Below, piece by piece: positions 1-28,828 of a DNA stretch of 64,000 bases. Origin of the DNA: an uncultured delta proteobacterium (GTDB lineage: Bacteria > Desulfobacterota > Binatia > Binatales > Binataceae); contig CAWBMF010000011.1 in assembly GCA_963789835.1 (NCBI GenBank), positions 9,814 to 73,813 on the forward strand, read 5' to 3'. The notes under the pieces were generated by a model that was not told the DNA's origin, made no database searches, and saw only the letters and a program-made list of their open reading frames with translations. A program made the translations under genes and the position numbers. The first letter of the stretch is position 1; every line of letters begins with the position of its first letter.

Positions 1-299
1 TGCCTTCACTGGCCGCGGAAGCGCGCGAACTAGTTGATTGGCTCCTCCGAGCTTATCCTGAGGCTCCTCGAACGTCTGCTAGGACAATTGAGAATCAGCT
101 TCGCGATCTTCACCGTCGTCACTTCAAAACGAGGACCACGAAATAAGGTTTTTCGTACGGCTTTTTCGTGGGACGGGCTACGACTTAGTCTTCGCGGTAT
201 GAAGTTACGTCGTAACTCGCTTTTAAGTCTCAGATTAACGGGCCATTCATCCCATCTAAATGGGGTCAGGATCATATTCGCAGGCGCGCATGCGTTCTC

Positions 300-1304
300 T
301 TGCGGCTGGCGCGGCCGCGCGACGACGAGCGGCGAACGGAAGAGAATTGGGCGAGCTGTGGGCGGGCGGAAGCTATGAGCGGATTCGTGATGGGCTTGAT
401 TCTGAAACATTCGCGGTCGAGAGGGACCAGCAGGCTAGTGGCTGTGGCGATTGGGGATTGCTGCGAAGACGACGGAACCGGCGCTTGGCCGGCTGTGCGC
501 ACCATCGCGGCGCGCGCGAGCACTAGCGGGCGAACAGCGCAGCGGTCGATCACGGAGCTTGTGCAGTTAGGCGAGCTCGCCATCGATGAGAACGCAGGGC
601 CGAAACGCGCAAACCTCTACACGATTAGAATCGACCGGCTTCTTGCCAATGGTGCCGCTGACAAACTGGCGGCTGAAAAATTGGCGCTAGAATCGAAGCG
701 GCAGGGTGCCAAATCGGCGCCTGTACCAAAATTACACCCTGTCAGAGAAGGCGCCGGAGGGTGTCACGACGAGCGAATGGAGGGTGACGAAATTGCAGCA
801 GAGGGTGACAAGGCAGTGTCACCCGATCCGTCCTCTGGATCCGTCCGTTCGGATCCGTCCATCGATCCGTCCACCTGCGGTGCGGCTCGTTCGGGGTTCC
901 TCTATCCCGATGACTTCCTGGAATTCTGGAACGTGTTTCCGGGCACAGATGGAAAACGCGCGGCCCTCCAGGCGTGGAAGAAGTTATCGAAGTTCGAAAA
1001 GGCGAGCGCGATAGCTGACGTTCCCAAACGGCTCTTGGCGAATTGGGCTGGGAAGGAGCTCCACAAGCTTCCCAACGCCTCGACTTACCTGAATGAGCGG
1101 CGATGGGAAGATGAGCTGCAGGCGAATCGAATTGTGGTGCCAGGGCCGCCGAGACTTTCGCCAAAGCGGCAGGAACTATTCGAATCGATTCAACGCGACA
1201 AGGCAAAGGAAGCGGTAAATGAAACAGTCTCAGGCCAAACAGGTGTTGCTCAAGTCCAGCACCATCTGGACGAGACAACCGACAGACGAGGCAATACAGG
1301 CTGA
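300..1304 (+). CDS. phage-like HTH domain protein; probable true start at the in-frame ATG at 372 (MSGFVMGL...)
   Basis: ORF with a central 'RTAQRSITELVQLGEL' helix-turn-helix-like segment; first gene of a block of + strand mobile-element genes; family not recognised. Confidence 0.4.
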   Translation: MRLARPRDDERRTEENWASCGRAEAMSGFVMGLILKHSRSRGTSRLVAVAIGDCCEDDGTGAWPAVRTIAARASTSGRTAQRSITELVQLGELAIDENAGPKRANLYTIRIDRLLANGAADKLAAEKLALESKRQGAKSAPVPKLHPVREGAGGCHDERMEGDEIAAEGDKAVSPDPSSGSVRSDPSIDPSTCGAARSGFLYPDDFLEFWNVFPGTDGKRAALQAWKKLSKFEKASAIADVPKRLLANWAGKELHKLPNASTYLNERRWEDELQANRIVVPGPPRLSPKRQELFESIQRDKAKEAVNETVSGQTGVAQVQHHLDETTDRRGNTG

Positions 1305-1596
1305 GTGGGCAGAATGTCTTTCGCGGGTGAGCTTCGAAGGGGCTCTGTACGCTGTTCGCGGACTGCGAGATTCGGGGCGCCAGGAGTCACCGACGCCAGG
1401 CGAAATATTCAAGCTCGCGCGCGAGTTCGACGATCGACGCGAAGCCGACGAGCGCCGCAAGCAGAGGCTGCTGGAGGAGCCGGCCCGAACGCCGGAACAG
1501 ATCGCGGCGGCAAAAAACCTCGTGGCGGATTTCGAGAAACGTATGAATGAACGTAATGATCGAAGACGCCGCGGTTCCCGAATCGTACCGGGGTAG
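1219..1596 (+). CDS. hypothetical protein of the mobile element
   Basis: 125-aa ORF with a charged, Arg/Glu-rich C-terminus; no recognisable family; overlaps its neighbours, so the boundaries are uncertain. Confidence 0.3.
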   Translation: MKQSQAKQVLLKSSTIWTRQPTDEAIQAEWAECLSRVSFEGALYAVRGLRDSGRQESPTPGEIFKLAREFDDRREADERRKQRLLEEPARTPEQIAAAKNLVADFEKRMNERNDRRRRGSRIVPG

Positions 1597-1696
1597 GGGG
1601 ATCAAATCTCTACGATCGGCCGAGCGTTTACCGTATGGCAGCTACACGCGTGTGGCCGCAGGTTGCCCCCTAGGGGGGGTATGCAGGAGGTGGTGG

Positions 1697-2953
1697 ATGG
1701 GGAGTCAGGATTTTCGTGATCGAATCAAAGAGCTCCGTCGGGTGCCAGCGCGAGAGCTTGTGGCGAATCCTCGAAACTGGCGCAAGCACCCCGCTGCCCA
1801 GGCCCAGGCACTTAGGGCGGTGCTAGAGGAGGTCGGCTATGCCGACGTATTGCTGGCGCGCGAGATGCCGGACGGTCGCTTGATGCTGATAGATGGCCAT
1901 CTTCGGGCCGAGACCACACCAGACCAGAACGTGCCTGTTGTGGTCCTCGACGTAGACGAGATCGAAGCAGACAAGATTCTAGCAACCCTCGATCCCCTCG
2001 CCGGCATGGCACAAACGGATAAGCTTGTCGCCCGCGATCTCGCTGACCTGCTTCGAGAATTTAGCGGTGATGGAGTAAATCGGCTACTCGAACAATTGGC
2101 TGGCCGCTCAGTGGGTGAACTGAAAGATCCACCGGCGCAGGTCGACAAGGCTTCTGAACTGATGGCGAAATGGGCGACTCAAACGGGCCAGGTGTGGCAG
2201 ATAGGCCCGCATCGGATGGTATGCGGGGATTGCCGTGATGAGACGGTTGTAGGGCGGCTTTGGCCGAAGGGCGGTCCTAAATTGCGGATGGTCTGGACCG
2301 ATCCGCCCTACGGCGTCGACTATGCGGCGAAGAACGCCTATCTAAACCGCGCCGACCGAGGAAATCGGGTTCAAACTCCAATCGAAAACGACAGTCTGAC
2401 AGCCGCCGAGACAGGAATCGTTTTCAAGCGATCGCTTGAGGTCGCGAAGAAATTCGCCGAGGCGGGTGCGGCCTGCTATGCGACCGTACCGGCCGGTCCA
2501 TTGCTCGTCCACTTCGTTCAAGCACTGACCGCCGCCGGCTTCGGATACCACGCTCAATTGATCTGGGTGAAGCATCAATTTGTGATCGGAATGGCCGACT
2601 ATCACCACCGCTTCGAGCCAATTCTGTACGGTTGGCTGCCCGATGCGGCGCACTACTTCGTCAAGGATCGTACTCAAGACGATGTTTTCGAAGTTGCCAA
2701 ACCTCAGGCGAGCGAATTCCATCCAACCACGAAACCCATCGAGTTGATTGCGCGAATGATCGCCAACAGCAGCCGGCCGGGCGAGATTGTCTTCGATCCA
2801 TTCTGTGGCAGTGGGTCCACCCTGCTCGCCGCGCATCAATTGGAGCGCATTGGCTACGGCGTCGAATTGTCTCCCGCGTATATTGCCGTAGTTCTCGAGC
2901 GATTCGCGGCGCTTGGTGTCGAAGCAGAATTGGTTGGACGCGAGGAATGCTAG
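1697..2953 (+). CDS. ParB-like nuclease domain fused to a DNA N6/N4-methyltransferase (phage-type MTase)
   Basis: The N-terminus 'RVPARELVANPRNWRKH...LIDGHLR' is ParB/Srx-like. 'MVWTDPPYGVDY' is the DPPY catalytic motif and 'VFDPFCGSGSTLLAA' is the SAM-binding FxGxG motif. An in-frame upstream start at 1547 is also possible. Confidence 0.8.
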   Translation: MGSQDFRDRIKELRRVPARELVANPRNWRKHPAAQAQALRAVLEEVGYADVLLAREMPDGRLMLIDGHLRAETTPDQNVPVVVLDVDEIEADKILATLDPLAGMAQTDKLVARDLADLLREFSGDGVNRLLEQLAGRSVGELKDPPAQVDKASELMAKWATQTGQVWQIGPHRMVCGDCRDETVVGRLWPKGGPKLRMVWTDPPYGVDYAAKNAYLNRADRGNRVQTPIENDSLTAAETGIVFKRSLEVAKKFAEAGAACYATVPAGPLLVHFVQALTAAGFGYHAQLIWVKHQFVIGMADYHHRFEPILYGWLPDAAHYFVKDRTQDDVFEVAKPQASEFHPTTKPIELIARMIANSSRPGEIVFDPFCGSGSTLLAAHQLERIGYGVELSPAYIAVVLERFAALGVEAELVGREEC

Positions 2954-3433
2954 ATGAAAACGCCAGGACCGCCACCAACGCCGACTAATCTGAAATTGCT
3001 CAAGGGAAACCCGGGGAAGCGGAAGCTGAACACTAACGAACCGGACCCCGAGCCGGCGATCCCTCCTTGCCCCAATCACCTGGATAAGGTTGCCAAGAAA
3101 GAGTGGCGCAGAATCAGCAAGGAGCTTCTTGCACTCGGAATAATCTCGAGGCTGGATCGCGCCGCTCTTGGCGGCTATTGCGACGCGTACGGACGCTGGG
3201 CGGAAGCGGCGCAACAAATCCAGAAATACGGTCTGGTCTTCAAATCGCCAAGCGGCTACCCGATGCCATCGCCGTATCTCGCGATCCTTCATACTGCGCT
3301 CGACCAGATGCGCGCATTCCTCACGGAATTTGGGCTCAGTCCGGCTTCGCGCTCACGGGTCAAGGTGGCCAATCCCAAGCAGCGTGACCTATTCGGGGAT
3401 TTTCTCGATGGCGACGACGAAGAGGTTGTCTGA
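2954..3433 (+). CDS. phage terminase small subunit, P27 family
   Basis: 'LKGNPGKRKLN...W...L...G.....D...L..YC..Y' N-terminal signature and 'FGLSPASRSRV' C-terminal signature of the P27 TerS family; no large terminase follows. Confidence 0.7.
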   Translation: MKTPGPPPTPTNLKLLKGNPGKRKLNTNEPDPEPAIPPCPNHLDKVAKKEWRRISKELLALGIISRLDRAALGGYCDAYGRWAEAAQQIQKYGLVFKSPSGYPMPSPYLAILHTALDQMRAFLTEFGLSPASRSRVKVANPKQRDLFGDFLDGDDEEVV

Positions 3434-3441
3434 CCGACTCT

Positions 3442-3801
3442 TTGGGCGGTGAGGTATCTGGTGTGGCAGAGGGAAACTCAATTCAGCAAAACGATCCGAA
3501 GCTCGTCGAATGGGCTGGTCGGATCTCGCTCGATCAGATCCCGGGGCTGCTGCTGGTCCTCGCTTCACGCTGGCTGGTCGAGACGTCGGCAAACGCGAAC
3601 GAACAAGACAGTAAACGCGACCCGGGACCGAACCTCGTAACCGCCGGTGAGCTGGCCAAGCACCTCAATCTCCCCGAGTCCTGGGTTCGCACCGAGGAGC
3701 GACTCGGTCGAATTCCAAGCGTCAGGCTCGGCAAATACGTCCGCTTCAGGTTGAGCGATGTGGAACGGAGCCTCGCTCAAAACAAACGCCGCAGGCCATA
3801 A
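3442..3801 (+). CDS. excisionase/MerR-like helix-turn-helix DNA-binding protein
   Basis: C-terminal 'LVTAGELAKHLNLPESWVRTEERLGRIPSVRLGKYVRFRLSDVERSL' resembles an excisionase-family HTH; it sits immediately upstream of the integrase; the true start may be internal. Confidence 0.5.
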   Translation: MGGEVSGVAEGNSIQQNDPKLVEWAGRISLDQIPGLLLVLASRWLVETSANANEQDSKRDPGPNLVTAGELAKHLNLPESWVRTEERLGRIPSVRLGKYVRFRLSDVERSLAQNKRRRP

Positions 3802-3881: not shown

Positions 3882-5120
3882 ATGGCAAGCATCAGAAAAT
3901 TCCATGTCGCCAGCTGCATAGGCAAAGATTGTGGCTGCCTTTGGGTGCTCGATTATCGCCCGCTCGGTTTGTTCGGCCCGCGTCGGCGGGTCCGTTTCAA
4001 GACGCGTAAAAAGGCGGAACGGTTCCAGATCGACACCGTGCAGCAAGCTTCTCGCGGCGAATACGTCGAGCCGGCGAAGGTGCCAACTTTCGGCGAGGTT
4101 GCTGAGGATTGGTTCAAAAGCAAGTTGGGTCGCAGACCTTCTCACACCTTCAATCTTAGAACGCGCCTCGACAAACAAATCCTGCCCGTGATTGGAAAGC
4201 AAAAGCTCGATCGAATCACGGTGGAGGCAGTAGAAAAGCTTCGAGACAAGCTGCGCGAAGAGGAATATGCGCACCGGACCATCAACCGGATCCTTTGGAT
4301 CGTCGGAGCGGTGTTTCGTCTCGCAATCAAACGGGGGCAGTGCTCGAAGAATCCGGTCGACAGCGTCGAGCGCGCGGTTCAACCAGCGCGGGAGCTCAGC
4401 ACCGATGGTCTGCCAGCTGGAACCGGAACGGACGCCATCGATCCCGACAGCGTCCTCAGCCCGAAAGAAATTCAAACTCTGCTGCAGGAAGCAAAGCCCG
4501 GTTTCGAGCGAACCCTCTTCGAGACCGCGTATCTCACGGGAGCGAGACAGGGAGAACTCCTTGCGCTGCGATGGATTGATCTGGAGCTGCCGAAGGAAGG
4601 CTCCGGGAAAATGGTGATCCGCCGGAGTCTGTCCTGGGCCCGGCCGCAGGGCGAGGAGATACGCCCCCGTTACTTCCCACCGAAGACCAAAGCGGGCCGC
4701 CGAACGATCTCCATACCTGCTTTGCTGGTCGCAGAGCTCAAGCGTTGGAAGCTTCAGTGTCCGATCTCGGAAGATGGACTGGTATTTCCGACGATGGACG
4801 GAAAGCCGATGCCGCACGCGAAGATGCTCCAGACCCAATTCTATCCAGCCCTTTCACGAGCGAAGCTGCGGAGGGTTACGTTCCACACTCTGCGCCATAG
4901 TTGTGCTTCGGCAATGATCGCGAGCGGCGCCCCGATAACCGAGGTGCAGCATCGGCTCGGCCACGCCAATCCCGCTATAACCTTGCTTGTGTACTCGCAT
5001 TTTCTGAAGCAATCGGAGAGCGATGTTGCCGACAGGCTCGCCGACGCCCTATTAAACATCCCTTCAGCAACCAGAACTCAAAAAGCGATCGAATCATCAT
5101 CTAGCGCGATTGCGTCATAG
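3882..5120 (+). CDS. tyrosine-type site-specific integrase (phage integrase family)
   Basis: C-terminal catalytic box 'HTLRHSCASAMIASGAPITEVQHRLGHANPAITLLVYSHF' (R...HxxR...Y); an N-terminal SAM-like domain; 412 aa. Confidence 0.9.
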   Translation: MASIRKFHVASCIGKDCGCLWVLDYRPLGLFGPRRRVRFKTRKKAERFQIDTVQQASRGEYVEPAKVPTFGEVAEDWFKSKLGRRPSHTFNLRTRLDKQILPVIGKQKLDRITVEAVEKLRDKLREEEYAHRTINRILWIVGAVFRLAIKRGQCSKNPVDSVERAVQPARELSTDGLPAGTGTDAIDPDSVLSPKEIQTLLQEAKPGFERTLFETAYLTGARQGELLALRWIDLELPKEGSGKMVIRRSLSWARPQGEEIRPRYFPPKTKAGRRTISIPALLVAELKRWKLQCPISEDGLVFPTMDGKPMPHAKMLQTQFYPALSRAKLRRVTFHTLRHSCASAMIASGAPITEVQHRLGHANPAITLLVYSHFLKQSESDVADRLADALLNIPSATRTQKAIESSSSAIAS

Positions 5121-5262
5121 CTCCCGATAATGCGGAGCAAGCCCGCGGATGGCTTGGACATACGTTCGCTCTGGAATTAACAATGGGCTGCGATTGGCCC
5201 ATCGGAGGGGTATATTTTCTTGAGCGTCTGCGAGAGTCCTAATCGCCAGGCAGCATGCCGCC
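5113..5262. repeat. ~150-bp direct repeat, copy A (about 80% identical to 11482-11642); starts 8 nt before the integrase stop codon; candidate att site or conserved non-coding element
   Basis: Aligned by eye: 'cgt[c/t]atagctcccgataatg...gcggatggcttggac...ctggaattaacaatgggctgcg...aattttcttgagc...tcctaatcgc[c/t]agg' is shared between the two loci in the same orientation. Confidence 0.7.
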
Positions 5263-5314
5263 ATCGGATCCTTTTGAGCCGCTGCTATACAACACCACAC
5301 TGAGGAGAACCCGC

Positions 5315-6049
5315 ATGCCAAAGTTCAGCCGTTTAACGCCAATCCGTTTGCTGGTTTTTGGAGTGCTGCTCCTTGCATCACCTTCGTGGGCTCAGACGCG
5401 CTCGCCGATTGCCGAACAGATCGCCAAGGCCTATGGCCTGGATTCGTACGATCAAGTTGAAGCGATCCGCTATACGTTCAACATAAGGGGCGCCATCTCG
5501 GTCACTCGTTCATGGGTTTGGGAGCCCAAGACTGGCCAAATCTCCTACGAGGGAAAGGATAAGGACGGCAAGCCGGTGAAAGTTACCTTTGTGCAATCCA
5601 AGGTTACCCCCGATTCTCCCATCGCGAAGGAAAAAATTGACTGGTTTTTCGTAAACGACAATTATTGGGCGTTCCTCCCCTTCCATCTTTACTGGGATTC
5701 CTCAGGCGTTAAGGTGCAAGACATGGGCATGCAAAAGCTGCCGCTCGGGAATGGTTCGGCGAAGCTGGTGACCTTCCAATATCCGAAGGGTGGTTACACG
5801 CCCGGAGATACTTGGGATCTGTACGTAGCGTCTGACAACCTGTTCAAACAAATGGTCTACCATCGGGGATCCCCAAATAGCCCCGTGCCAGCTCTCGTTA
5901 CAGTGACCTGGGCGGGCTACAAGAAAGTTGGCCCTCTAACTTTTTCGACCGATCATCGCGGGACCGCGGATGGCAAGCAGCTGCATCTCTTCTTTTCGAA
6001 TGTGGCCGTCAAGCTAGTCGGGTCCGAGACATGGATTAACGCGCAATAG
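5315..6049 (+). CDS. secreted hypothetical protein
   Basis: ATG at 5315 preceded by a GAGGAGAA Shine-Dalgarno; signal peptide 'MPKFSRLTPIRLLVFGVLLLASPSWAQ'; the upstream in-frame extension to 5255 lacks a ribosome-binding site. Confidence 0.6.
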   Translation: MPKFSRLTPIRLLVFGVLLLASPSWAQTRSPIAEQIAKAYGLDSYDQVEAIRYTFNIRGAISVTRSWVWEPKTGQISYEGKDKDGKPVKVTFVQSKVTPDSPIAKEKIDWFFVNDNYWAFLPFHLYWDSSGVKVQDMGMQKLPLGNGSAKLVTFQYPKGGYTPGDTWDLYVASDNLFKQMVYHRGSPNSPVPALVTVTWAGYKKVGPLTFSTDHRGTADGKQLHLFFSNVAVKLVGSETWINAQ

Positions 6050-6109
6050 AAGCGGCATCTACGGTGTCGATGGCGAATTGCTTATTGGCGCTTCAAAAGG
6101 AAAAGCTCG

Positions 6110-7138
6110 ATGACAAACCCCGGCTCCCACAAATACTTGTTCATCGCGGTCGCGTTCGTGCTGACGCTCGTGAACGTCGATTTGTTAAGCGCCCGAGCGC
6201 AAACGCAATCCCCATCTCAGCCTGCAAAGGTGCGAGAGGTCGATTTCACCTATCACACAGAAATTACCGGAATAGATCCGAAGGCCCATCGTGTCGAGGC
6301 CTGGATTCCGCTGCCGCGAGAAGACCGATTCCAGCAGGTAAGCGATCTTAGGATCGACAGTCCAGCGCATGTCGAGGTGGTAAATCAGCCCACCGGCGGA
6401 AATCGCGTTGCGCATCTGCTCGTAAACGTGCCGCCGTCGGGTTCGATACCGGTTACCATCCGCTTCAATGTGCGGCGCGTCGAGGAATCGGCGGATCTGG
6501 AGAAGGCGCAGGCGAACGGTCCGCGGCCGACCGGCGGGGCGTTTGCCGGCTACTTGGGCCCGGACCGCCTAGTTCCGATCGACGGACAAATAAAGCTGGT
6601 AAGCGCCAAGGTGGGCGAACCGGACGGTTCTTCCTACGAACAGGCCAAGGCCATCTACGACTACGTCATTGCGAACATGACCTACGACAAGAGCGGCCAA
6701 GGATGGGGACGGGGCGACGCCATCTATGCGTGCAACGTCAAAAAAGGAAACTGCACCGACTTCCACTCGCTGTTCATCGCGATTGCTCGCTCTCGGGGCA
6801 TTCCGGCGCGTTTTACGATTGGCTTTCCGCTCGGCGCGCCGAGCGCGGGCACAATCCCCGGTTATCATTGTTGGGCGGAATTTTATACCGGCGGCCAGTG
6901 GGTTCCGGTGGACGCATCGGAAGCGTGGAAGCATCCTGACCTGCGCAATTATTATTTCGGCCATCTCGACGCCGGCCGGGTTGCGTTCACGATGGGCCGC
7001 GACCTGGAGCTAACGCCGCGCCAGAGTGGAGAACCGGTTAACTTTCTGATTTATCCGTACGTTGAGGTCGACGGCAAACCGCTGCCAAAAGAGCAGATCA
7101 AAAACAAGTTCGAGTACACGGCGGTTGCTGGTCAGTGA
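6110..7138 (+). CDS. secreted transglutaminase-like cysteine peptidase domain protein
   Basis: Signal peptide 'YLFIAVAFVLTLVNVDLLSARAQ'; Cys-His-Asp core 'GNCTDFHSLFIAIARSRGIPAR...GYHCWAEFY...VPVDAS' typical of the transglutaminase-like superfamily. Confidence 0.75.
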   Translation: MTNPGSHKYLFIAVAFVLTLVNVDLLSARAQTQSPSQPAKVREVDFTYHTEITGIDPKAHRVEAWIPLPREDRFQQVSDLRIDSPAHVEVVNQPTGGNRVAHLLVNVPPSGSIPVTIRFNVRRVEESADLEKAQANGPRPTGGAFAGYLGPDRLVPIDGQIKLVSAKVGEPDGSSYEQAKAIYDYVIANMTYDKSGQGWGRGDAIYACNVKKGNCTDFHSLFIAIARSRGIPARFTIGFPLGAPSAGTIPGYHCWAEFYTGGQWVPVDASEAWKHPDLRNYYFGHLDAGRVAFTMGRDLELTPRQSGEPVNFLIYPYVEVDGKPLPKEQIKNKFEYTAVAGQ

Positions 7139-7174
7139 TTCGAAAGGCCGCCAAGGAATAACTGCGGCGAACTT

Positions 7175-8470
7175 TCAAGCGGAGGAGCTCGTCGCGCGAC
7201 GCTCCCTCGCTGACTTCGCCCACATCCACCCGGCTACGCCTAGAACGGGAACGTACTCAATTACCATGGTCGCCCAGACGGGAAGCGGCCAGTACACTGC
7301 AAGCGAGCTCACGGTCCAGACCGCGAGCGGCAGCATGCGTGGAGTGAAAAGGAACGGGGTAACCCAAACGAGGTACCACGGGAAAATCGTCGGCGCGAAA
7401 AGCAGCGTTACTGCCAGAGGCCAGGCCCAAGCCTCCGGTGAGTCGAGGGGCAAATGCCAACGCGCCCAGAGCGCGACCGCAAATCCGAGAGCGACCGGAA
7501 CGCCGACCAGGCCCTTCGTCGGAAAGACCCACTCGAGCGCTGTATAAACCGGTGCATTGACGCGCCAACGCGCTAAATAGCCTCCGAGCGAGCCGAGCGG
7601 CAACTGACCGTGTCCCAGAAATGGAATATAAAGCGCAGCGAAAATTCCGACGGCTAACACCGCGTCACGGCGGCGGATGCGACCCCAAAAGAGGGGCGTC
7701 AACGGGACCGGAAGAAATTTGACCCCGATCGAGAGCGCGAACGCAACAGCAGAAGCTGTGCGCTTTCCCCGTACCAGCAAAGCTGCGGTGATGACAAGAG
7801 CTAGCGCACCTAAGAGATCCACATGCCCGTTTCCGGCGCCCTCCAGTGCGACTAGCGGATTCCATGCATACGCGAGCACCCACCACCGGCTTCGACCGGA
7901 CGCAGACAGCCACCAAAGGAGAACGGCGACTAAGGCGGCATCACAGAAAAAGGCGGCAGATTTCATCGCGCGCGCTGAATCATCCACCGTTGCGACGCCG
8001 CGAAAAAAAAGCTCGGCAACAGCTGGATACGGCGTCGGGAAATCAGGATGGTTCATCAGCCGAGTCTCGGCAGTGTGCAAATGCCGGACAGCGCTGTCGC
8101 TTGGTACAACCAGGTAAGGATCGTAGCCAAGCCGCTGGATTCTGCCATCCCACACATACCTATAGACATCGGTTGAAAGGGTTGGCGGGCTGAGTAGAAG
8201 GGCAACTCGCCATGCCGCTGCGAGCACAAGGCATAGCGCAAGTCTTCGATTGCTCCTCCCCGCAAACCGGCCGAGAAGCCATACGGTTCGCAGATATGCG
8301 ATCGCTGCCAACGCAGTGCATACGACGAATACGTGCGCGTGTGTTCTTGAATCCAAGAAGGAAATCCCGAGCATGCAACCTGCGATGACTAAACCCCAGC
8401 CGATGACCGCGGCCGGCGCTACGCTCTCCTCCTTCACCACTCGCGTAGCTCCGGCCGGCGGGCGAGCCAC
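7175..8470 (-). CDS. polytopic membrane GT-C type glycosyltransferase (GT87/DUF2029-like)
   Basis: About 10 predicted TM segments; periplasmic-loop motif 'STDVYRYVWDGRIQRLGYDPYL' resembles the DUF2029/GT87 mannosyltransferase signature; the start may be the internal Met. Confidence 0.55.
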   Translation of the reverse strand: MARPPAGATRVVKEESVAPAAVIGWGLVIAGCMLGISFLDSRTHAHVFVVCTALAAIAYLRTVWLLGRFAGRSNRRLALCLVLAAAWRVALLLSPPTLSTDVYRYVWDGRIQRLGYDPYLVVPSDSAVRHLHTAETRLMNHPDFPTPYPAVAELFFRGVATVDDSARAMKSAAFFCDAALVAVLLWWLSASGRSRWWVLAYAWNPLVALEGAGNGHVDLLGALALVITAALLVRGKRTASAVAFALSIGVKFLPVPLTPLFWGRIRRRDAVLAVGIFAALYIPFLGHGQLPLGSLGGYLARWRVNAPVYTALEWVFPTKGLVGVPVALGFAVALWARWHLPLDSPEAWAWPLAVTLLFAPTIFPWYLVWVTPFLFTPRMLPLAVWTVSSLAVYWPLPVWATMVIEYVPVLGVAGWMWAKSARERRATSSSA

Positions 8471-9078
8471 GCGGCCGTTCGCTGGGCGCGGCTAGGAAAT
8501 AAACTAAGCTCGCGAGCCAACCGCGCCAGATCCTCAAACTCATCCACGTCATAACCGGTTTCGGTGAGTGCCACGCGAAGACCCAGGCCTTGCGCACTTG
8601 CCATCAAGGAATCAAGCGCGCTGCCGGTACCCATCTGTTGCGTATCAAACAACTCGGCTTGCGCAGTGTTACTACCTACGAGGTAGTAACCGCCGTCTGT
8701 CGTAGGACCCAATACCACGTCCGCTCCGTCGAGGAGCTGAAAAGCCTTATCGAGAGTCTCCGGCGGCAGTTGAGGGCTATCGCCATCGAGAGCGATCACA
8801 CGGCGGTATCCTCTGTCGATGAAGATGCGAAAGGCCGAGGCGAGGCCGGCGGCAAGACCTTCGCCTTGTTGCCCGACGACTTCGATCGCCGGCAGCCAAC
8901 TGGCGAGATCGGCGACATCTGACGTCGGGCAAACAATGGCAAGTGCGTCAGTTGAGATGGAGTGAGCAAGATCCAAAGTATCTTCAATCAGACATTTATA
9001 GAGTTCGACGACGGCTTCGGCAGGCAGACTGGCGGCGAGTCGAGTTTTCACTTGGCCGACGCGAGCAGCCTTCGCCAT
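8434..9078 (-). CDS. DUF2064 (CofC/MobA-like nucleotidyltransferase-fold) protein; candidate 'transferase 1, rSAM/selenodomain-associated'
   Basis: 'IIMAKAARVGQVKTRLA...ALDGDSPQLP...VLGPTTDGGYYLVG' matches the DUF2064 pattern. The ORF as given extends to 9462 but then overlaps the GT2 gene, so the start was placed at the Met nearest the family N-terminus; an alternative start between 9078 and 9117 is possible. Confidence 0.6.
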   Translation of the reverse strand: MAKAARVGQVKTRLAASLPAEAVVELYKCLIEDTLDLAHSISTDALAIVCPTSDVADLASWLPAIEVVGQQGEGLAAGLASAFRIFIDRGYRRVIALDGDSPQLPPETLDKAFQLLDGADVVLGPTTDGGYYLVGSNTAQAELFDTQQMGTGSALDSLMASAQGLGLRVALTETGYDVDEFEDLARLARELSLFPSRAQRTAAWLARRPELREW

Positions 9079-9119
9079 TATGATCAGGGCACGTTCACGA
9101 ATCGCTGAACCCACCTGTT

Positions 9120-9902
9120 TCAAACGTTCCCCTCGCCCTTCGAAGTGCTGTCGAGGAGCTGATACTTGAAGATCGCGCCGAGGATACCCCAGGCCGCGCC
9201 AATGCTTCCTCGCAAGGTACCGCTTATCTTCGACGAGCCGATCCGGGGATGATAGCTCACCGGCACTTCGGTGATTCGAAGTCCCTGCCGCGCGCCTTTC
9301 ACGATCATCTCGACCGGCCATCCATATGTCGTTTCCCGTAACCCGAGCGCAAGCAGCGCTTGATAGCGCGCTGCTCGGAACGGACCAAGATCCGTGAGGC
9401 GGACACCGTTGAATAAAGCGATCAGGCGAGCCGCGAGACGATTGCCGAACACCGCATGCCAAGGCATAGCGCCTGCTGTCCGCTCGCCCGCCAGGCGCGA
9501 GCCGATGACGATATCCGCGGTGCCCTGCCGCAGTGGCTCCAGCAGACGAGACATCTCCACGGGACGGTCACTGTAGTCTCCGTCCAGGAACACGACGACG
9601 TCTGGAGCATTGACTGCAGCCAGGCCGGTGAGACAGGCGCGACCATAGCCACGCCGCGGCTCATGCAGAACCTCGGCCCCCATCTGGCGCGCAATCTGCG
9701 CGGTTCCGTCGGTTGAATCGCTGTCGACGACAATCACTTGTTCGACCATTCCAGCCGGAATATCGGCCAGAACGAGGCCGATGGATTGGGCTTCATTGTA
9801 CGCAGGAATGACTACCGAGACGCGCACAGATTCAGATTGGAAGCTGCGGCCAGCGCCGTGCGAGCGCGACGTCGACTGCAGCGCGCTCACCCGACGGTCC
9901 AA
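9120..9902 (-). CDS. family 2 glycosyltransferase; candidate 'transferase 2, rSAM/selenodomain-associated'
   Basis: 'VSVVIPAYNEAQSIGLVL...VIVVDSDSTDGT...VVVFLDGDYSD' is the GT-A fold DxD architecture of GT2 enzymes. Confidence 0.8.
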   Translation of the reverse strand: MDRRVSALQSTSRSHGAGRSFQSESVRVSVVIPAYNEAQSIGLVLADIPAGMVEQVIVVDSDSTDGTAQIARQMGAEVLHEPRRGYGRACLTGLAAVNAPDVVVFLDGDYSDRPVEMSRLLEPLRQGTADIVIGSRLAGERTAGAMPWHAVFGNRLAARLIALFNGVRLTDLGPFRAARYQALLALGLRETTYGWPVEMIVKGARQGLRITEVPVSYHPRIGSSKISGTLRGSIGAAWGILGAIFKYQLLDSTSKGEGNV

Positions 9903-10350
9903 GAGTCAGCGCGGCAGCTAAGGCCATTGGAATCAACAGCTCCCATATCCAGCTGAGGCCCCACTCCGAGACCCACAGGCCGGTCAGCAATCCAAACGCA
10001 ACGAGCGCGGCAAATCGGGAAAAAAAACCGAGGACGAGCGCCACTCCGAGGCTCGCTTCAAGAACCCCCTGCAGAGGACCGGTTACCGCGGCGTGGGCGG
10101 CGGTGAATCCCATCACGTGCTTCCAAAGTGTCGGCGCGTGACCATATTGGATGTAGTAATGGATCAATCCCGCGTATCCTTTGGCGGTGTACAGCTCTTT
10201 GTGAAGGTTCTCGAAGAAGGTCGACACGAATAGTGCGCCGAGCGCGACCCTTAGTATCGCGAGCGCGAGCGCGGCGTCGAGGGTGGGCAGTTTGGAGTTC
10301 CTCAAGATTTGCGCTCCTCGCGCTCTTGAGCGCCGAACACGGTGGTGCAA
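9832..10350 (-). CDS. DoxX family membrane protein
   Basis: Four-TM small protein with 'LAILRVALGALFV...GLLTGLWVSEWG' DoxX-like segments; its 5' end overlaps the GT2 gene, so the true start is probably internal. Confidence 0.55.
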   Translation of the reverse strand: MHHRVRRSRARGAQILRNSKLPTLDAALALAILRVALGALFVSTFFENLHKELYTAKGYAGLIHYYIQYGHAPTLWKHVMGFTAAHAAVTGPLQGVLEASLGVALVLGFFSRFAALVAFGLLTGLWVSEWGLSWIWELLIPMALAAALTLGPSGERAAVDVALARRWPQLPI

Positions 10351-11348
10351 GCACTCCCAGCCTTCGAGAATTGTCGCAAGCTTCCGGCGCGGCTGGCGAA
10401 TGTAGGCAGAGGCTTTCCCGCAACGAACGGGCAGAACTCATCGGGCAGGTCTAATCCTCCCCGCAGTAGCCGCCGACTCGGACAGCCGCCGCGGCACGAA
10501 TCGATGAAGCGACAATTCGCGCAAAACTGCGGAATTTGATCCAGCTCGCGGAAAGCCGGTGAGTCGACAATCGCCGCTCCCCGTTCTTCAAGCTCAGCCA
10601 GCCCGATAGTCCGCTTCGGCCAATAGACGCATGGGAGCACTTCGCCTTTCGGCGTGACGCGGATGGTACCCTTTCCGCAACCGCCCGAAACAGCGTCGAA
10701 TCCAAGAATCGCGCGCACGATAGGTTCATTGCACACGGCTAATGGACAGGATTCCAGCAGCCTCTGAAAGCCAGTCCAGAACTGCTCATAGTCGAGTGAG
10801 AAGGCATCCGTTTTGACAGGCTGATAGACATTGATCCGGAAATTTGCCCCGTGCCGGGCGGCGACCGCCCCTATCTCGGGGAGCTTGTCATAGTTGGTCC
10901 GCATCATAACGGCGATAATCGTGACCGAGACTCCAAGTCCTAGAACCCGCGCCGTCTGATCGAGCACAAGCTGCCAGTTCCCCGGACCACGCCAAGAATC
11001 CTGCTCAGGCTCGGTCGCGAAGTCCAGTGAAAACTCGAGATCAGCGAAAGCGCGCAGCTCATCATCGCTTAGGACCGCTGCCGAGTAGCCATTTGAAGTC
11101 AGCGCTATCGTGGTGCCGCGCTCGCGCAAGTACTGCAGGATCGCGTGAAACTCCGGATGAAGTCCGTTCTCACCGGTTCCAAGGTTCACCGATCGAACCG
11201 GCACATTTTCGCAAACGCGCCGAACGTCCTCGAGCGACAGACGATCAATCCGACCTGTATCGCGATAGCAATGAGCACAGGCAAGATTGCACTCGTTGGT
11301 GAGCCCAAGGCCGATCGAAAAACCATCGCCGCCAGATTGTTTCATCAT
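10302..11348 (-). CDS. radical SAM enzyme with a C-terminal Cys-rich (SPASM-like/'selenodomain') extension
   Basis: Cx3Cx2C cluster 'TNECNLACAHCY' near the N-terminus; C-terminal 'CANCRFIDSCRGGCPSRR...FCPF' cysteine-rich domain. Confidence 0.85.
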   Translation of the reverse strand: MMKQSGGDGFSIGLGLTNECNLACAHCYRDTGRIDRLSLEDVRRVCENVPVRSVNLGTGENGLHPEFHAILQYLRERGTTIALTSNGYSAAVLSDDELRAFADLEFSLDFATEPEQDSWRGPGNWQLVLDQTARVLGLGVSVTIIAVMMRTNYDKLPEIGAVAARHGANFRINVYQPVKTDAFSLDYEQFWTGFQRLLESCPLAVCNEPIVRAILGFDAVSGGCGKGTIRVTPKGEVLPCVYWPKRTIGLAELEERGAAIVDSPAFRELDQIPQFCANCRFIDSCRGGCPSRRLLRGGLDLPDEFCPFVAGKPLPTFASRAGSLRQFSKAGSACTTVFGAQEREERKS

Positions 11349-11481
11349 CTCGGCCTATCACTTACGGACACGATAATGCACCAACAGCGTGCTGTATCTC
11401 AAATGAACGAGAGTCATGAAACCGTCGTCGCCGTTGATCGACTGGACCGACGAGAACTCAAGCAGGGATCGAATTCCTACC

Positions 11482-11642
11482 TATTTCAGTCGCGTTATAG
11501 CTCCCGATAATGGGACCAAGCTCGCGGATGGCTTGGACGTATGTTCGCCCTGGAATTAACAATGGGCTGCGGTTTGCTCATCAGAGTGGCGCAATTTTCT
11601 TGAGCATCTGGGGAAATCCTAATCGCTAGGCCGCACGCCGAC
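11482..11642. repeat. ~150-bp direct repeat, copy B (partner of 5113-5262)
   Basis: Same shared blocks as copy A; lies between the radical SAM gene's upstream region and the 3' end of the cyclase/STAND gene. Confidence 0.7.
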
Positions 11643-11714
11643 CGGAAAAGGGAGAGAAACACAAGTCAGCGTCGCAATGAAACCAATTGCCGCTTTAGAG
11701 GTGCTGCGTAGCGA

Positions 11715-14700
11715 CTACATCAATCGATCGAGCACCTGGCGTGCTTCTATCAAGTCGAGCGTGTCATGGCCTTCGGTAAAACTGGAATACAATGGCTCAA
11801 GCAGGTTCCGAGCTTCCAGATTCGAGTTGCGCGACACCAGTAGAGTCGCCAAGCAGGTGGCCGCGCGCAGTTGAATAGGTTTAGCGCCGATTCGTGCTGC
11901 GGACGCGATAGCCTCGCGAAAGCATTGCTCAGCTCCTTCTGGGCGATCAGCAGTTACCGAACTCTGAGCACTCGATTCGCAAGGTAATGGTCCCGCTTTC
12001 TCGACCAGCAGTTTACCCTTGACCCAAAGTAGGTATGGTTGCCACGCTTCCTCCTCGGCAGAAGAAGCAATGGCGTCGACCACCGTCGCTAGCGCCTCCT
12101 CATGCAGGCCGGCCGCTCCCTCGGCTTCTGCGAGCATACCGAGGAAGAACCAGAGCCCCACGCGTGTACCTGGTGCGATGTAGTCAGATACACCCTTGCG
12201 CACAACCGCTAGGCCGTCTAGCACCTTCCCTTCGTTCAGCATGACCCAGCCATTAAGAATTTCGCTCGAAGCGGAAAAAAAAGGAAAATTCTGGCCCGCA
12301 ACCAGTGAGGCGAGCACCTTTGCATGCGTTTTCACTTGGATTGGGTCGCGTAGGTATACGGAAAGCACACCAGCGAAGTGCTCGGCGAAAGCGAGGTCGT
12401 TAGGTTTATTTAGGCGTTGCGCAATGTCGAGAACTTCGCGCATTTGTTCGCGCGCCAGATTGATCTCTCCCAGGTGCCACGAGGCCCAACTCTGATGGGC
12501 GAGAGCAGTAACGCCCGGATCTTGCGGGCCGAACAAATGGTCCTCGCGTCGGTAGTGTGAATAAGCGATTGCCGCGTGATCGCGGGCTCTCTGGAAATCC
12601 CCCAAATAGAATCTGCTCATCGTTTGAGCCGTGTTAGCCCAAACTATCGCGAGTACTCCGCCATCTCTTGTTGCGAGTGTAAGTAGTTCATTTGCGAGAG
12701 TTAGACCGAGGCCCTTCTCCCCTCTAGTAAGCGACGATATGTAAAGGCCAAGCAACACGAACAAGAGATTCATCGTGTTCCCGATCTTGTCGCCCAGAGA
12801 ACGGGCCTTGGCATATGCTTCCAGCGTCTCTGGCGCGGCGTACCCAAATAGAAAAGTCGAAACGTGGCCTAATCCTATCCATAGGAGCATTTCGCGCTGC
12901 GAACGCTGAGGACTCTCAGGGAGGTGTGTCAGCTCTGCAAGGGCGCGATTGTAGTATTCTTTCGCTTCAGGAAACGCACCGCGTATTACCGCCCGCTCAC
13001 CAGCCGCTTGCCAGGACGCAGACGAGCGATCGGCATCACCGGCGGCACTGTGGTGGATTGCCAGGACTTCGGGCTCCATCTGTGCGAGCTGGCCAAACTC
13101 ACGCTCGAGTACGGATGCGATTTTTCCATGCAATTGCTTGCGCTGCGCTTTAAGCAGAGCTTCGTACGCCGAGTCCCGAATCAGAGCGTGCTTGAAGGTA
13201 TAGGTTGAATCGGGCGGTAGACCCCTCTGGTAGACGACATCCGCGTCGACCAATCGTTCGAGGTGTGACTCGAGTTCACTATCCGAGAGCTCTGTAACGG
13301 AACGAATGAGTTGGTAGGAGAAGTCACGCCCAATTGTCGCTCCGACCTGGGCCACTTCCTTCGCGCCGCCCAGACGATCCAACCTCCCCATTAGCGAGTC
13401 TTGCAGGCTCTCTGGGATATCCGTGCCCGTAACGCGTGCGCCGCCCTCCAACAGCGATCGAACCATTTCTTCAACAAACAGCGGCACCCCGCCTGTTTTC
13501 TCTACAACTGCGTCCACAACTTTTCGTTCTAACGCGCTGCGCGATGCAACCTGCGCAACTAGGTCACGTATCTCAAGATCATTTAGGGGAGAAAGATTGA
13601 GTTGGGTATGATGTGCCCGAATCTTCCAAGGGATGCGGAATTCCATCCTCGCGGAACCAATGAAGAAGAGCGGCAACGCGCCAGCTTGATCCACGATCAC
13701 CTTGAGCAATTCGAGCGTGGAGGTGTCCGCCCAATGCAAGTCTTCCATCACAAGAACTGCGGGTTGAACCCTAGCGAGACCGAACAGCCACTGTGCGAGC
13801 GTGTTGATGAGCCGGTTATGTTGATCTTCGGGATAGGCTACCAAGGGTGGATATTTGTTCGAAACCGGAAGGCCGAGCAGTGACGCGATCAGTGGAACGG
13901 CTTCGGCTAGTTTGATGCCGGAAAGCTCCAACGAGCGTTCGATTTGGGTGATTCGCTCATCTGCCGGCTCATCGCCCCGCCAAGCGAATCCCTGCTGGAG
14001 CATCTCCGAGACGGCGAAAAACGGCGTGTTTTGATAGAAAGGAGCGCCGCCGCACTCAATCCAGGTATGCGGCACGTCGCCGATTAGATCGTGCGCCTTT
14101 TGGATTAGTCGTGACTTTCCGATTCCGGCTTCACCGACCACCAGTACGACTTGCCCAGAACCTGTTCGTGCCCTGTCCCATCGCGTTTGGAGTATCCTAA
14201 GTTCCTCTTCCCTTCCAATAAACGGGGTCAAGCCGCGTCCGCGGGCTGCGGCATTCACCCGCTGACGTACGCCACTAACCTGGACAACTTTGTAGAGTCG
14301 TACGGGCTCGGGAATCCCCTTGAGTTGTCGAGCGCCCTGGCTCTGGATGACGAACACCCCGGGAACCAGCTTGTTGACGGCATCGGTGATTAGAATCGAA
14401 TTCGATCCAGCTTCTGATTGAACTCTGGCGGCGATATTTGGCGTATCGCCGAACACATCAGGTGCTTCGCCACCTCCGTGGGATACCACCACAAATCCGG
14501 CATCAATGCCGATTCGAACCGGCAACTGTGACCGCCCTTCGTTCTTGAGACTCTGATTCAACAATTCCATTGCTTGAAGCAGCGCGAGGCTGGCACGTAC
14601 CGCTCTCTCCGCATCGTCTTCGTGAGCCTCCGGGTAACCGAAGAACACCAAGACACCGTCACCCAGGTACCTTACGATGGTTCCCCCGAAGAGCGTGACG

Positions 14701-15059
14701 GCTTCGCCAACGACGTTCCGATATGCCGAGATCAAACTGAGCCAGTCCTCGGGATCGAGGCCGGCGGCGGTTGCGGTCGAGTCGACAATATCGCAGAACA
14801 AGACCGTGAGATGTCGGCGCTCCGCGCCAGCAGCGTCCAAAGCCCCGAGGGGGTCCGCGTGGAGATTATGAGATCCGCGTGGAGTAGCAGATTCCGAATT
14901 CCCTGAGTCGGGAAGTGAGGATCCGCAATCGGAACAGAAACGCGCGTTGCGCGGAGATCGCGCGCCGCAGGCATGGCATATTCGCTCGAGCGGCGTGCCG
15001 CAATTTGCGCAGAAGCCTTTTCCTTCTAGAGCCTCGCTATTACAGCTCGAGCAATGCAT
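11715..15059 (-). CDS. Zn-ribbon / class III adenylate-guanylate cyclase / AAA (STAND-type) ATPase / TPR multidomain protein
   Basis: Double Zn-ribbon 'CSSCN...CANCG...CHACG...CSDCG'; cyclase 'RRHLTVLFCDIVDSTA...RIGIDAGFVVV'; Walker A 'VVGEAGIGKSRL'; long TPR-like C-terminus; 1114 aa. Confidence 0.85.
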   Translation of the reverse strand: MHCSSCNSEALEGKGFCANCGTPLERICHACGARSPRNARFCSDCGSSLPDSGNSESATPRGSHNLHADPLGALDAAGAERRHLTVLFCDIVDSTATAAGLDPEDWLSLISAYRNVVGEAVTLFGGTIVRYLGDGVLVFFGYPEAHEDDAERAVRASLALLQAMELLNQSLKNEGRSQLPVRIGIDAGFVVVSHGGGEAPDVFGDTPNIAARVQSEAGSNSILITDAVNKLVPGVFVIQSQGARQLKGIPEPVRLYKVVQVSGVRQRVNAAARGRGLTPFIGREEELRILQTRWDRARTGSGQVVLVVGEAGIGKSRLIQKAHDLIGDVPHTWIECGGAPFYQNTPFFAVSEMLQQGFAWRGDEPADERITQIERSLELSGIKLAEAVPLIASLLGLPVSNKYPPLVAYPEDQHNRLINTLAQWLFGLARVQPAVLVMEDLHWADTSTLELLKVIVDQAGALPLFFIGSARMEFRIPWKIRAHHTQLNLSPLNDLEIRDLVAQVASRSALERKVVDAVVEKTGGVPLFVEEMVRSLLEGGARVTGTDIPESLQDSLMGRLDRLGGAKEVAQVGATIGRDFSYQLIRSVTELSDSELESHLERLVDADVVYQRGLPPDSTYTFKHALIRDSAYEALLKAQRKQLHGKIASVLEREFGQLAQMEPEVLAIHHSAAGDADRSSASWQAAGERAVIRGAFPEAKEYYNRALAELTHLPESPQRSQREMLLWIGLGHVSTFLFGYAAPETLEAYAKARSLGDKIGNTMNLLFVLLGLYISSLTRGEKGLGLTLANELLTLATRDGGVLAIVWANTAQTMSRFYLGDFQRARDHAAIAYSHYRREDHLFGPQDPGVTALAHQSWASWHLGEINLAREQMREVLDIAQRLNKPNDLAFAEHFAGVLSVYLRDPIQVKTHAKVLASLVAGQNFPFFSASSEILNGWVMLNEGKVLDGLAVVRKGVSDYIAPGTRVGLWFFLGMLAEAEGAAGLHEEALATVVDAIASSAEEEAWQPYLLWVKGKLLVEKAGPLPCESSAQSSVTADRPEGAEQCFREAIASAARIGAKPIQLRAATCLATLLVSRNSNLEARNLLEPLYSSFTEGHDTLDLIEARQVLDRLM

Positions 15060-18950: not shown

Positions 18951-20297
18951 TCAATGATCGGTCGCATTTGACCGTGAGTTGACGTCGACAAGGTTGCCGA
19001 TCCCTTCGTCGGCGGCTTGCGCGGCCACAGCTCCGCCATAGTTGGTCGCGATGAGGACAGCGAAGTCCTTGTTGGGTGCGATCCACACGATGCAATACCA
19101 TGTCGTGTTCGAACCGGCATGAGTAAGCGCGAGGCCGCCGGCCCACGGACGCTGCGTGACGGTCCAGCCCCCCGCGTAGTCTTGCCCCGGCATCGGAGTC
19201 GTCAACTGTTTGAAGGTTTCGGGGGATACCAGTGTCGGTTGACCCTGAGCGGCGCGAAGGTCCTCCGCGACAAACCTGGACCAATCGCCGATGGAGCAGT
19301 GGACGGTGCCGGCCGGTCCCAGCACCGGCGCATTGTCGATCTTCGTCGGCTTTAATTTGCCGTTCTCATCGAGGTGCCCCCACGGTTGATCCACTTGGCC
19401 CGGCGTGCCGGGCGCGCCGAAACCCGCGCTTGTCATTTCAAGCGGACGAAAGATTTGCCGCTCGATGATCTCTTCCCAGGATTTGCCGGTCTTCGTTTCG
19501 ATGATTGCTCCAAGTACTACGTAACTGACGTTCGAGTACGAAAATTTTCCGATCGCTGTAGCCGGCGGCGCTGACAGCGCTTGCTCGACCGCCTTGCGAC
19601 GTTGCGCTGGAAGGGGCAGATGGGTCGCATCGAGGGCCCACCAGTCCAGATTGGGCAGAAGCCCCGCGTCATGATCCAGTAGTTCGCGAACAGTCACCTT
19701 GGCCATCGCAGGATCCATTTTTGCCGCTAGGTCCGGAAAAATATCTGCCATCGTCGTATCGAAGCTGAGCTGACGCTGGTCGATCAGTTGACCGATGAGG
19801 ATCGCAGTCATCGCCTTTGTATCGGAGCCCAAATGGATCTCATCGGTATCCAGAAAAGAAGCCGGATCGCCGGCCTTGCGAACCCCCGTGCTGCCGAGCG
19901 CGACAATTTGATCGCCGTGAAGAATTGCGCCGACGACCCCCGGAAGTTTGTATTTCTCAGCCAGTGCTCCAAGCGTAGGGGCAAGATCGCGCGGCGGGGT
20001 GGATGCCTCGGCGCCAAGGAGCAGCGGGAGGATCATGATCAGCACCATTCCACTGGCGAAAGTGATCGTGGCAGTGCTGCCAGATCCACTCCTGGCGACG
20101 TTTGATGTCCTCATGAAGACACGGATTCGGTCGACGATCGGTATCGCCGTTGTCGCCATCGACCCGTCGATGTACGCGCCAACTTTCAGGAGTATTTCAA
20201 TCATAGCGTCGGCGGGATGGGCGGCGGCATCATAACCGAAATCCTGATCGAAATTGAGTCGGCCGACTTTTTGAGTCTCCACATTTGATTCAGGCAT
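18951..20297 (-). CDS. secreted beta-lactamase/transpeptidase-fold serine hydrolase
   Basis: SxxK motif 'LGSDTKAMTAIL'; an internal signal peptide 'MVLIMILPLLLGAEA' suggests the true start is near 20048, and the N-terminal 83 aa of the ORF are probably not translated. Confidence 0.7.
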   Translation of the reverse strand: MPESNVETQKVGRLNFDQDFGYDAAAHPADAMIEILLKVGAYIDGSMATTAIPIVDRIRVFMRTSNVARSGSGSTATITFASGMVLIMILPLLLGAEASTPPRDLAPTLGALAEKYKLPGVVGAILHGDQIVALGSTGVRKAGDPASFLDTDEIHLGSDTKAMTAILIGQLIDQRQLSFDTTMADIFPDLAAKMDPAMAKVTVRELLDHDAGLLPNLDWWALDATHLPLPAQRRKAVEQALSAPPATAIGKFSYSNVSYVVLGAIIETKTGKSWEEIIERQIFRPLEMTSAGFGAPGTPGQVDQPWGHLDENGKLKPTKIDNAPVLGPAGTVHCSIGDWSRFVAEDLRAAQGQPTLVSPETFKQLTTPMPGQDYAGGWTVTQRPWAGGLALTHAGSNTTWYCIVWIAPNKDFAVLIATNYGGAVAAQAADEGIGNLVDVNSRSNATDH

Positions 20298-20601
20298 CCG
20301 TTCTTTGAGACGCGCAAACTTGTGCGTCTGTTATCCCCTTCGGTGGTCTGCAGGATTTCGACCGCGACCCGTGTAGTCGCCTTGTAGAACCGTACGGCGG
20401 CCGCCGGTATTGGATCAATGGTGCGAGGGCGTTTGTTGTGATATGCCGCGAAGCGCCAGCCTGCTGCGAGGTCAAGCAAAACGTGCCCGACCCTCGCGGC
20501 CACATTTTTCAGATCAGCCCGAGCTTCATCGACGCGTTCCAGTTGCGACTGTGGCGGAATTTCTTCGGTCTCAAAACCGAAATCGAAAATTGTGGGCAGT
20601 A

Positions 20602-20702: not shown

Positions 20703-20746
20703 TCCCCTTGCACGCGTTGAGCGATTGATCGGGACCGTTGCGACAA

Positions 20747-28813: not shown

Positions 28814-28828
28814 GGCAGGCTGCACTCA

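Follow-up and report, generated by a model that had tools for sequence, protein, structure and literature searches.

A duplicated integrase-end junction as a candidate att-type repeat around a seven-gene block in a Binataceae genome

Introduction

How does a block of cell-envelope genes that looks chromosomal come to lie between two copies of a sequence that begins inside the end of an integrase gene? The question is raised by a 64,000-nucleotide stretch of DNA from an uncultured bacterium of the family Binataceae (assembly GCA_963789835.1, contig CAWBMF010000011.1, positions 9,814 to 73,813), referred to below as the window, in which two diverged direct repeats flank a 6.2-kb block of seven genes and the left copy overlaps the 3' end of a tyrosine integrase gene. 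A preliminary description of the locus offered two interpretations of the repeat, either as attachment (att) sites left by an old tandem integration, in the order attL, shared att, attR, or as a structured non-coding element, such as a small RNA (sRNA) or a leader, present in two copies. Judged on the structure of the sequence, the first of these appears to be the better one. We put at about 55% the probability that the repeat is the att-type junction of a tyrosine-integrase element, duplicated by tandem, Campbell-type insertion. The structure is familiar in kind, that of tandem accretion with an integrase-less island between att repeats, and it indicates neither a new mechanism nor a new RNA.

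Results

By local alignment and self-blastn, each copy of the repeat measures 191 bp (Table 1), with about 80-83% identity between the copies, three 1-nt indels and a blastn E value of 1.4e-42. The direct repeats had been given as about 150 bp long and about 80% identical; their homology and common orientation stand, whereas the length and the limits are revised here, and all five of the conserved blocks quoted at the time are present in both loci of the alignment. Copy A had been placed so as to begin 8 nt before the integrase stop, whereas the alignment puts its onset 51 nt (17 codons) before the end of the stop codon (TAG, 5118-5120). Copy A carries the live tail of the integrase gene, while the homologous 51 nt in copy B are a stub only, which nevertheless aligns with all integrase tails of the family, up to a stop codon at the homologous position. 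Within the window the repeat is confined to these two loci: the 22-mer CTGGAATTAACAATGGGCTGCG has two sites, both in the repeat, with up to 3 mismatches permitted (chance expectation 0), a 15-mer block is likewise restricted to the repeat copies with mismatches permitted, and the two window matches of an nhmmer profile of the non-coding part are copies A and B.

The position of the repeat relative to the element can be read from its relatives. In total, 15 loci (L001-L015) were compared with the window, among them four related integrase loci on other Binataceae metagenome contigs (L005, L006, L007 and L014). The DNA homology of L005, L006 and L007 to the window spans the excisionase and integrase genes and ceases at 5123, 5123 and 5126, that is, 3-6 nt past the integrase stop and inside copy A; the homology of a second integrase fragment in L007 ends at 5120, and that of L014, which has a shortened integrase tail, at 5083. 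Since the homology of the relatives ends inside copy A, the junction between element and flank lies inside the repeat. In a six-way alignment all tails are kept up to ...GCGTCATAG and are unrelated beyond, except that the two copies in the window continue to resemble each other over a further 140 nt. These alignments place the right end of the integrase family at the integrase stop codon, and because the tails of the relatives are unrelated past the stop, the 140-nt flank is not a conserved part of the element. By our own arithmetic, the odds that a random 191-bp segment would cover the element end in 64 kb are about 0.3%. L007 holds, in addition, a tandem array (10001-12843) in which an intact integrase gene (10001-11239) is followed by an AAA/DUF5925 gene (11270-12397) and by a 405-nt fragment from the 3' end of an integrase gene (12437-12841), with 79% identity to the end of the first; after the two stop codons there is no similarity.

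Exactly over this boundary the two window copies share an identical 16-nt stretch, ATAGCTCCCGATAATG, which by its placement is a candidate for the crossover core. The tail part of the repeat is 74% identical between the copies and the flank part 87% (Fisher p = 0.045), and the tail of copy B is 73% identical to that of the resident integrase, compared to 67-75% for tails from other genomes. The different divergence of tail and flank, together with the equidistance of the copy B tail, fits a junction whose two sides have had different histories.

The element that owns the integrase, which we call E2, is positioned to the left of copy A. The integrase and excisionase-like genes lie outside the repeat-flanked segment. 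From its gene content (Table 1) E2 appears to be a phage-satellite-like integrative element; no conjugation or mobilization genes were seen in it. Its integrase has 286 homologues, up to 90% identical, several of which are labelled Candidatus Binataceae, and positions 1-293 of the window are 78% identical to L006 2937-3229, within a related element.

What the repeats do enclose are seven genes whose identities by Pfam are as first listed, with the radical SAM, DUF2064 and GT2 genes accompanied by DoxX, a GT-C glycosyltransferase, a transglutaminase-like protein and a secreted protein. Pfam finds no integrase, transposase or transfer genes among them, and the GC profile does not delimit the block. 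Its limits can be drawn from other genomes. On the left, similarity to L008 sets in at 5267 (43/48), and L008 and L012 share with each other 42 further upstream nucleotides that are missing in the window; on the right, similarity to the sequence ahead of the radical SAM gene in L011 and L010 can be followed as far as 11444/11445 (64/88; score 60, where shuffled sequences reach at most 34). The layout is thus repeat, block, repeat, with at most 6 nt of slack at each junction. The block-bearing relatives L008-L013 lack the repeat on both sides of the block. Upstream of the radical SAM gene, within the block and outside the repeat, lies a promoter-like site (Table 1), in a segment that can be aligned to the sequence ahead of the radical SAM gene in L010 and L011; this site would serve as the promoter of the radical SAM operon.

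Across the family, DNA identity is 88% to window positions 5272-11385 in L008 and L009, where the gene order is the same, and relative to the block it is 92% in L012 and L013, which are without the transglutaminase gene, and 77-84% in L010 and L011. In L010 (10001-17069) and L011 (10001-17202) the orientation of the radical SAM-DoxX-GT2-DUF2064-GT-C operon with respect to the secreted-protein gene is reversed, and a phosphonate-binding-protein gene separates the two. Given this inversion and the missing gene in L012 and L013, the block is not a fixed unit across the family. The secreted protein alone has 7837 homologues below an E value of 1e-10, and the block-bearing contigs compared here are those with the nearest of them. 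In L009 we also observed an inverted duplication around the block region (4511-6310 and 19452-20735), consisting of an EcKL/APH-like kinase gene and two small open reading frames (ORFs). A serine recombinase and an rve transposase are encoded close by. In L008, which is nearly the same as L009 in other respects, the right-hand copy alone is present, and the duplication may reflect a polymorphic inversion or an effect of assembly.

Table 1 Coordinates of features in the window
Feature	Position	Strand	Basis or remark
Repeat copy A	5070-5260	+	Integrase tail 5070-5120; 140-nt non-coding flank 5121-5260
Repeat copy B	11450-11640	+	Dead integrase-tail stub 11450-11500 (TAG 11498-11500); 140-nt flank 11501-11640
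16-nt identical stretch (candidate core)	5117-5132 (copy A); 11497-11512 (copy B)	+	Spans integrase stop and end of family homology
Replication-initiator-like protein	300-1304	+	Pfam HTH_36; PHROG 270 replication initiation protein, E 4.5e-24
DNA methyltransferase	1547-2953	+	Pfam N6_N4_Mtase, E 1.6e-20; PHROG 498
Terminase small subunit	2954-3433	+	Pfam Terminase_4, E 1.2e-29; PHROG 83, E 3.3e-54
Excisionase-like HTH protein	3442-3801	+	Pfam HTH_17; PHROG 66 excisionase
Tyrosine integrase, intact, 412 aa	3882-5120	+	Pfam Phage_integrase, Phage_int_M, SAM_3; last 17 codons in copy A
Seven-gene 6.2-kb block	5267-11445		Pfam; no mobility genes
Secreted protein	5315-6049	+	
Transglutaminase-like protein	6110-7138	+	
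GT-C/MptA_B glycosyltransferase	7175-8470	-	
DUF2064	within 8434-9462	-	
GT2	9120-9902	-	
DoxX	9832-10350	-	
Radical SAM/SPASM enzyme	10302-11348	-	
Promoter-like site, radical SAM operon (TTGAGA-18-CATTAT)	11373-11402	-	Consensus scan; in block, outside repeat
Adenylate cyclase/AAA_16/TPR gene (AC1)	11715-15059	-	Pfam; convergent with integrase direction

The second of the two original interpretations, that of an sRNA or leader, gained no support from RNA families and folds. At the gathering score, Rfam returns tRNA-Sec only for the whole window, as does ARAGORN, and at E <= 10 Rfam gives only noise on the two copies. Folding z-scores, calculated for both copies and both strands, range from -0.64 to +0.50, and RNAalifold, which had been suggested as a check for compensatory changes, finds one compensatory pair per strand in the two sequences. 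The repeat is missing upstream of the orthologous secreted-protein and radical SAM genes in L008-L013, and the copies cannot be equivalent leaders, since they are oppositely oriented relative to the genes they precede. A sigma-70-like match (TGGACA-18-AACAAT) is found at 5155-5184, pointing toward the secreted-protein gene.

A coding origin fared no better as an explanation: a coding remnant was rejected on the grounds that there is no clear overall 3-nt periodicity, that the indels break every frame and that copy B has stops in all frames. A short plus-strand ORF, MAWTYVR(S/P)GINNGLR, occurs at 5149-5223 in copy A (24 aa) and at 11528-11629 in copy B (33 aa), with a weak upstream GGAG and with ends that differ because of an indel. 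Third codon positions hold 5 of the 7 substitutions over 5149-5207 (binomial p ~0.045), a bias that is lost after correction for frame number, and phmmer, run with the 42-aa frame against 1.84 billion proteins, gave only short-motif matches to unrelated PAN and Ig repeat proteins; the ORF is most likely a coincidence. Pfam has no match for a 68-aa antisense ORF or for the ORF at 11145-11510, and the latter was discarded as a piece of integrase, to which it has no similarity.

Other sources for parts of the repeat were also considered. The 140-nt flank does not appear to be the left arm of a next element in an array, because L006, the left part of which is homologous to window positions 1-293, has nothing similar, and it bears no similarity to C-terminal fragments of adenylate-cyclase/TPR genes, of the kind seen near junctions in L006 and L012. 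An integrase remnant in copy B reaching back to about 11424 was rejected as well, as this stretch has its match in the native sequence ahead of the radical SAM gene in L010 and L011.

To the right of copy B follow two convergent adenylate-cyclase/AAA_16/TPR genes. The orthologue of one of these (AC1) in L015 is 85% identical and has unrelated flanks on both sides, with the homology ending at the gene edges. C-terminal fragments from this adenylate-cyclase/AAA/TPR family (...FTEGFDTADLKDAKALL...) are present in L006 at 11255-11554 on the minus strand, 13 nt past the integrase stop, and in L012 at 2979-3026 on the plus strand, directly upstream of the secreted-protein gene. Paralogues of this family recur at rearrangement junctions, but they are extremely abundant (7797 hits).

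Discussion

If the repeat is indeed a duplicated att-type junction, the end of E2 would coincide with the stop codon of its integrase gene (about 5123), copy A would represent its right-end junction, and copy B a second, older version of that junction, in which the 51-nt tail stub would be the sole survivor of an integrase. The present layout could be generated by a circle carrying the block and one copy of the junction, which through one reciprocal crossover with the resident junction would produce the order repeat, block, repeat; alternatively, the same arrangement would result from accretion in tandem and later decay of the inner element. Since the left edge of the repeat lies in an uninterrupted integrase gene in copy A, and since the sequence continues past the right edge in copy B, one crossover is the most economical description. 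The crossover may have been made by the integrase at the 16-nt identical stretch on the stop codon, and the same enzyme could still be able to excise the block. The product would be an island lacking an integrase, bounded by att-like direct repeats and placed in tandem with an intact element, and in this respect similar to a cis-mobilizable element (CIME). A role for the integrase is suggested by position, and this role, the exact core and present-day mobility are all put forward from sequence. We favour an integrase system over generic recombination because the repeated unit spans the element end, because tail and flank differ in divergence, and because of the 16-nt run and the array in L007.

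Several observations weigh against this reading. No empty site or single-copy attB was found among the 15 loci compared, in which the block (L008-L013) and AC1 (L015) have unrelated surroundings. The 140-nt flank does not occur in loci L001-L014 by the nhmmer profile; exact 20-mer scans of genome, metagenome and viral contigs gave no genuine second locus for it, and phage and plasmid collections no match. Repeat searching revealed no convincing attL/attR repeats in L005 or L006 that would define the core site of the family. E2 extends beyond the window start, and its attL is thus outside the compared sequence. At 191 bp, the repeat is longer than one would expect of an att identity segment, the contrast in divergence between tail and flank is just marginally significant, and the block looks like ordinary lineage-wide chromosomal genes. 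Finally, since AC1 also changes both flanks in L015, the changing flanks of the block in other genomes are not diagnostic. The att interpretation as first formulated is supported by the span of the repeat over the element end, the stub in copy B, the tight fit of the block and the tandem array in L007; in its details it has to be amended for the length and start of the repeat, the missing empty site, the location of the owner element to the left of copy A and a block without mobility genes.

The same geometry could have come about without the integrase, through RecA-dependent homologous recombination with another copy of a related element end, which either inserted the block or placed a second 191-bp segment on its far side, or through tandem duplication and subsequent deletion, in which case the repeats would be passive scars. 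This origin is a serious rival, even if we hold it to be rather unlikely. A gap-free succession of repeat, block and repeat is expected from any single crossover within 191 bp of homology, the longest identical run between the copies (22 nt, 5171-5192) lies away from the element junction, the repeat has the untypical length already noted, and the window contains a second integrase-less block, flanked by 105-bp repeats. Yet recombination of this kind explains the span over the element end solely via the presence of related element ends, it predicts that the coding tail should have diverged no more than the flank, which is the opposite of what is observed, and it still needs a second, diverged integrase-end junction, such that it differs from the att-type reading just in the enzyme. 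One could also imagine that two elements integrated independently into pre-existing copies of a chromosomal target around the block, and that the right-hand one was later deleted down to the 51-nt stub, so that the block itself was never mobile. The wide occurrence of the block genes in Binataceae, the promoter-like radical SAM upstream region that the block keeps as its own, and a copy B tail as diverged as that of an unrelated family member would agree with such a history, which is nonetheless improbable: it requires that direct repeats of 140 bp, themselves unexplained, already surrounded the block and that a deletion happened to end within 5 nt of the block's native upstream region, and no block-bearing relative has the 140-nt sequence on either side.

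We regard it as very improbable that the two copies of the repeat were kept for a function, whether as non-coding elements (sRNA, leader or promoter module) or as a small-ORF cassette. The better conservation of the flank relative to the tail, the sigma-70-like match and the uncorrected third-position bias are features one would expect with such a function, but they are set against the missing Rfam match, the folding z-scores close to zero and the single compensatory pair per strand, the opposite orientation of the copies to their genes and their absence upstream of the orthologues, and, with respect to coding, the frames broken by indels, the unequal ORF ends and a protein search that led to unrelated short motifs. 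Still harder to credit is a dispersed element of the miniature inverted-repeat transposable element (MITE) or repetitive extragenic palindromic (REP) type, or the target-site duplication of a transposon. The repeat is short, non-coding and repeated, as such an element would be, but it is present in two copies in 64 kb and in none of L001-L014, and it has no terminal inverted repeats, for which reasons a MITE/REP-like repeat was rejected; nor is there a transposase in the block. The target-site duplications of known transposons are, moreover, far shorter than 191 bp.

The att-type reading has its closest parallel in tandem accretion, a described process that yields integrase-less elements with retained att sites beside an intact element and for which the CIME has been defined (PMC5704250); accretion with a CIME has been described for elements related to ICESt1 of Streptococcus thermophilus (PMC5704250). 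In both settings, a segment that lacks an integrase is enclosed by att-like direct repeats and lies in tandem with an element whose integrase and excisionase are intact. The outer repeat keeps what is left of an earlier integrase (here the 51-nt stub), and three sites are expected, attL, shared att and attR. With regard to gene content, all seven genes of the block are non-mobility genes, as in a CIME; with regard to origin from a decayed integrative element, the stub in copy B is the sole trace and the cargo looks chromosomal. The present case departs from the streptococcal one in that the neighbour is phage-satellite-like instead of an integrative and conjugative element (ICE) or an integrative and mobilizable element (IME), that the passenger is a lineage-wide cell-envelope block without recognizable decayed element genes, and that the repeats are 191 bp long and 17% diverged, at a locus known from sequence alone whose third att site lies outside the window.

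In phages of the lambda type, attP adjoins the 3' end of int, and defective transducing derivatives such as lambda dgal integrate beside a helper prophage. Here too the 3' end of the integrase gene points at the att site and chromosomal genes are bracketed by att sites beside an intact element, and the small terminase gene of E2 makes gene capture linked to packaging conceivable. The junction here, however, is on the integrase stop codon itself, and the duplicated unit thus includes the integrase tail, unlike in lambda; nor is there any sign of aberrant excision or packaging. A further comparison is offered by islands at tRNA or tmRNA genes that are flanked by a duplicated fragment of the gene, for instance the ssrA islands of Dehalococcoides (PMC3146451); the window itself contains an example, at tRNA-Sec (20601-20705 and 28828-28932). 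Such islands share with our locus direct repeats of about 100-200 bp that bracket cargo genes, but the 191-bp repeat consists of an integrase tail and unique non-coding sequence, with no tRNA, tmRNA or Rfam family in it.

Should the att-type reading be right, a core-type block in a Binataceae bacterium would be within reach of the integrase of a satellite-like element, and the locus would illustrate how housekeeping-like operons turn horizontally mobile. The family of its integrase, which has hundreds of metagenomic members but no characterized site, would also gain a concrete att candidate open to testing. One could speculate further that the crossover regularly takes place on the integrase's own stop codon, so that the tail-bearing junction of each integration becomes a landing pad for the next, by which a terminase-carrying satellite would capture and move core cell-envelope gene blocks. 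The array in L007 and the tRNA-Sec block described below would then be further products of the same habit. We consider this extension unlikely; if true, it would constitute a gene-capture route resembling specialized transduction in an uncultured phylum.

Additional observations

A 21-nt exact match to CTGGAATTAACAATGGGCTGC is found at 1780-1803 in L001, from an uncultured Solibacteraceae metagenome-assembled genome, and at 353-376 in L002, the same locus in a Joint Genome Institute (JGI) metagenome contig, where it falls in a non-coding gap between genes. There is no similarity beyond the 21-mer, about one 20-mer match is expected at this database size by our own estimate, and the match is probably due to chance.

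Further to the right, the window contains a direct repeat of 105 bp that is 92% identical between its copies (20601-20705 and 28828-28932), with tRNA-Sec at 28891-28986. It comprises 63 nt upstream of tRNA-Sec and continues through the first half of the gene as far as the anticodon loop (CTTCAAA), beyond which the left copy no longer matches; unusually, the duplicated half of the tRNA is the 5' and not the 3' one. The 8.1 kb between the copies encode an enoyl-CoA hydratase, an SDR protein, two family III CoA-transferases, a TetR protein, a thiolase-like protein and an NMO protein, with no integrase, making this the second integrase-less block between att-like repeats in the window. An ORF of 1509 aa lies at 33187-37716 on the minus strand; its product combines a pro-kumamolisin activation domain with a Cep192_D4/ASH Ig-like domain at the C terminus, and the ORF contains a long internal array with a periodicity of 6/12/18 nt (51 overlapping 300-nt repeat registers, 33.4-35.5 kb). 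Two adjacent paralogues of AcrB-family resistance-nodulation-division (RND) transporters occupy 44391-50626 on the minus strand, with 70-84% DNA identity at an offset of about 3.1 kb, and lie next to a HlyD-type adaptor (50623-51927), forming an ordinary tandem pair of the MdtB/MdtC-like kind.

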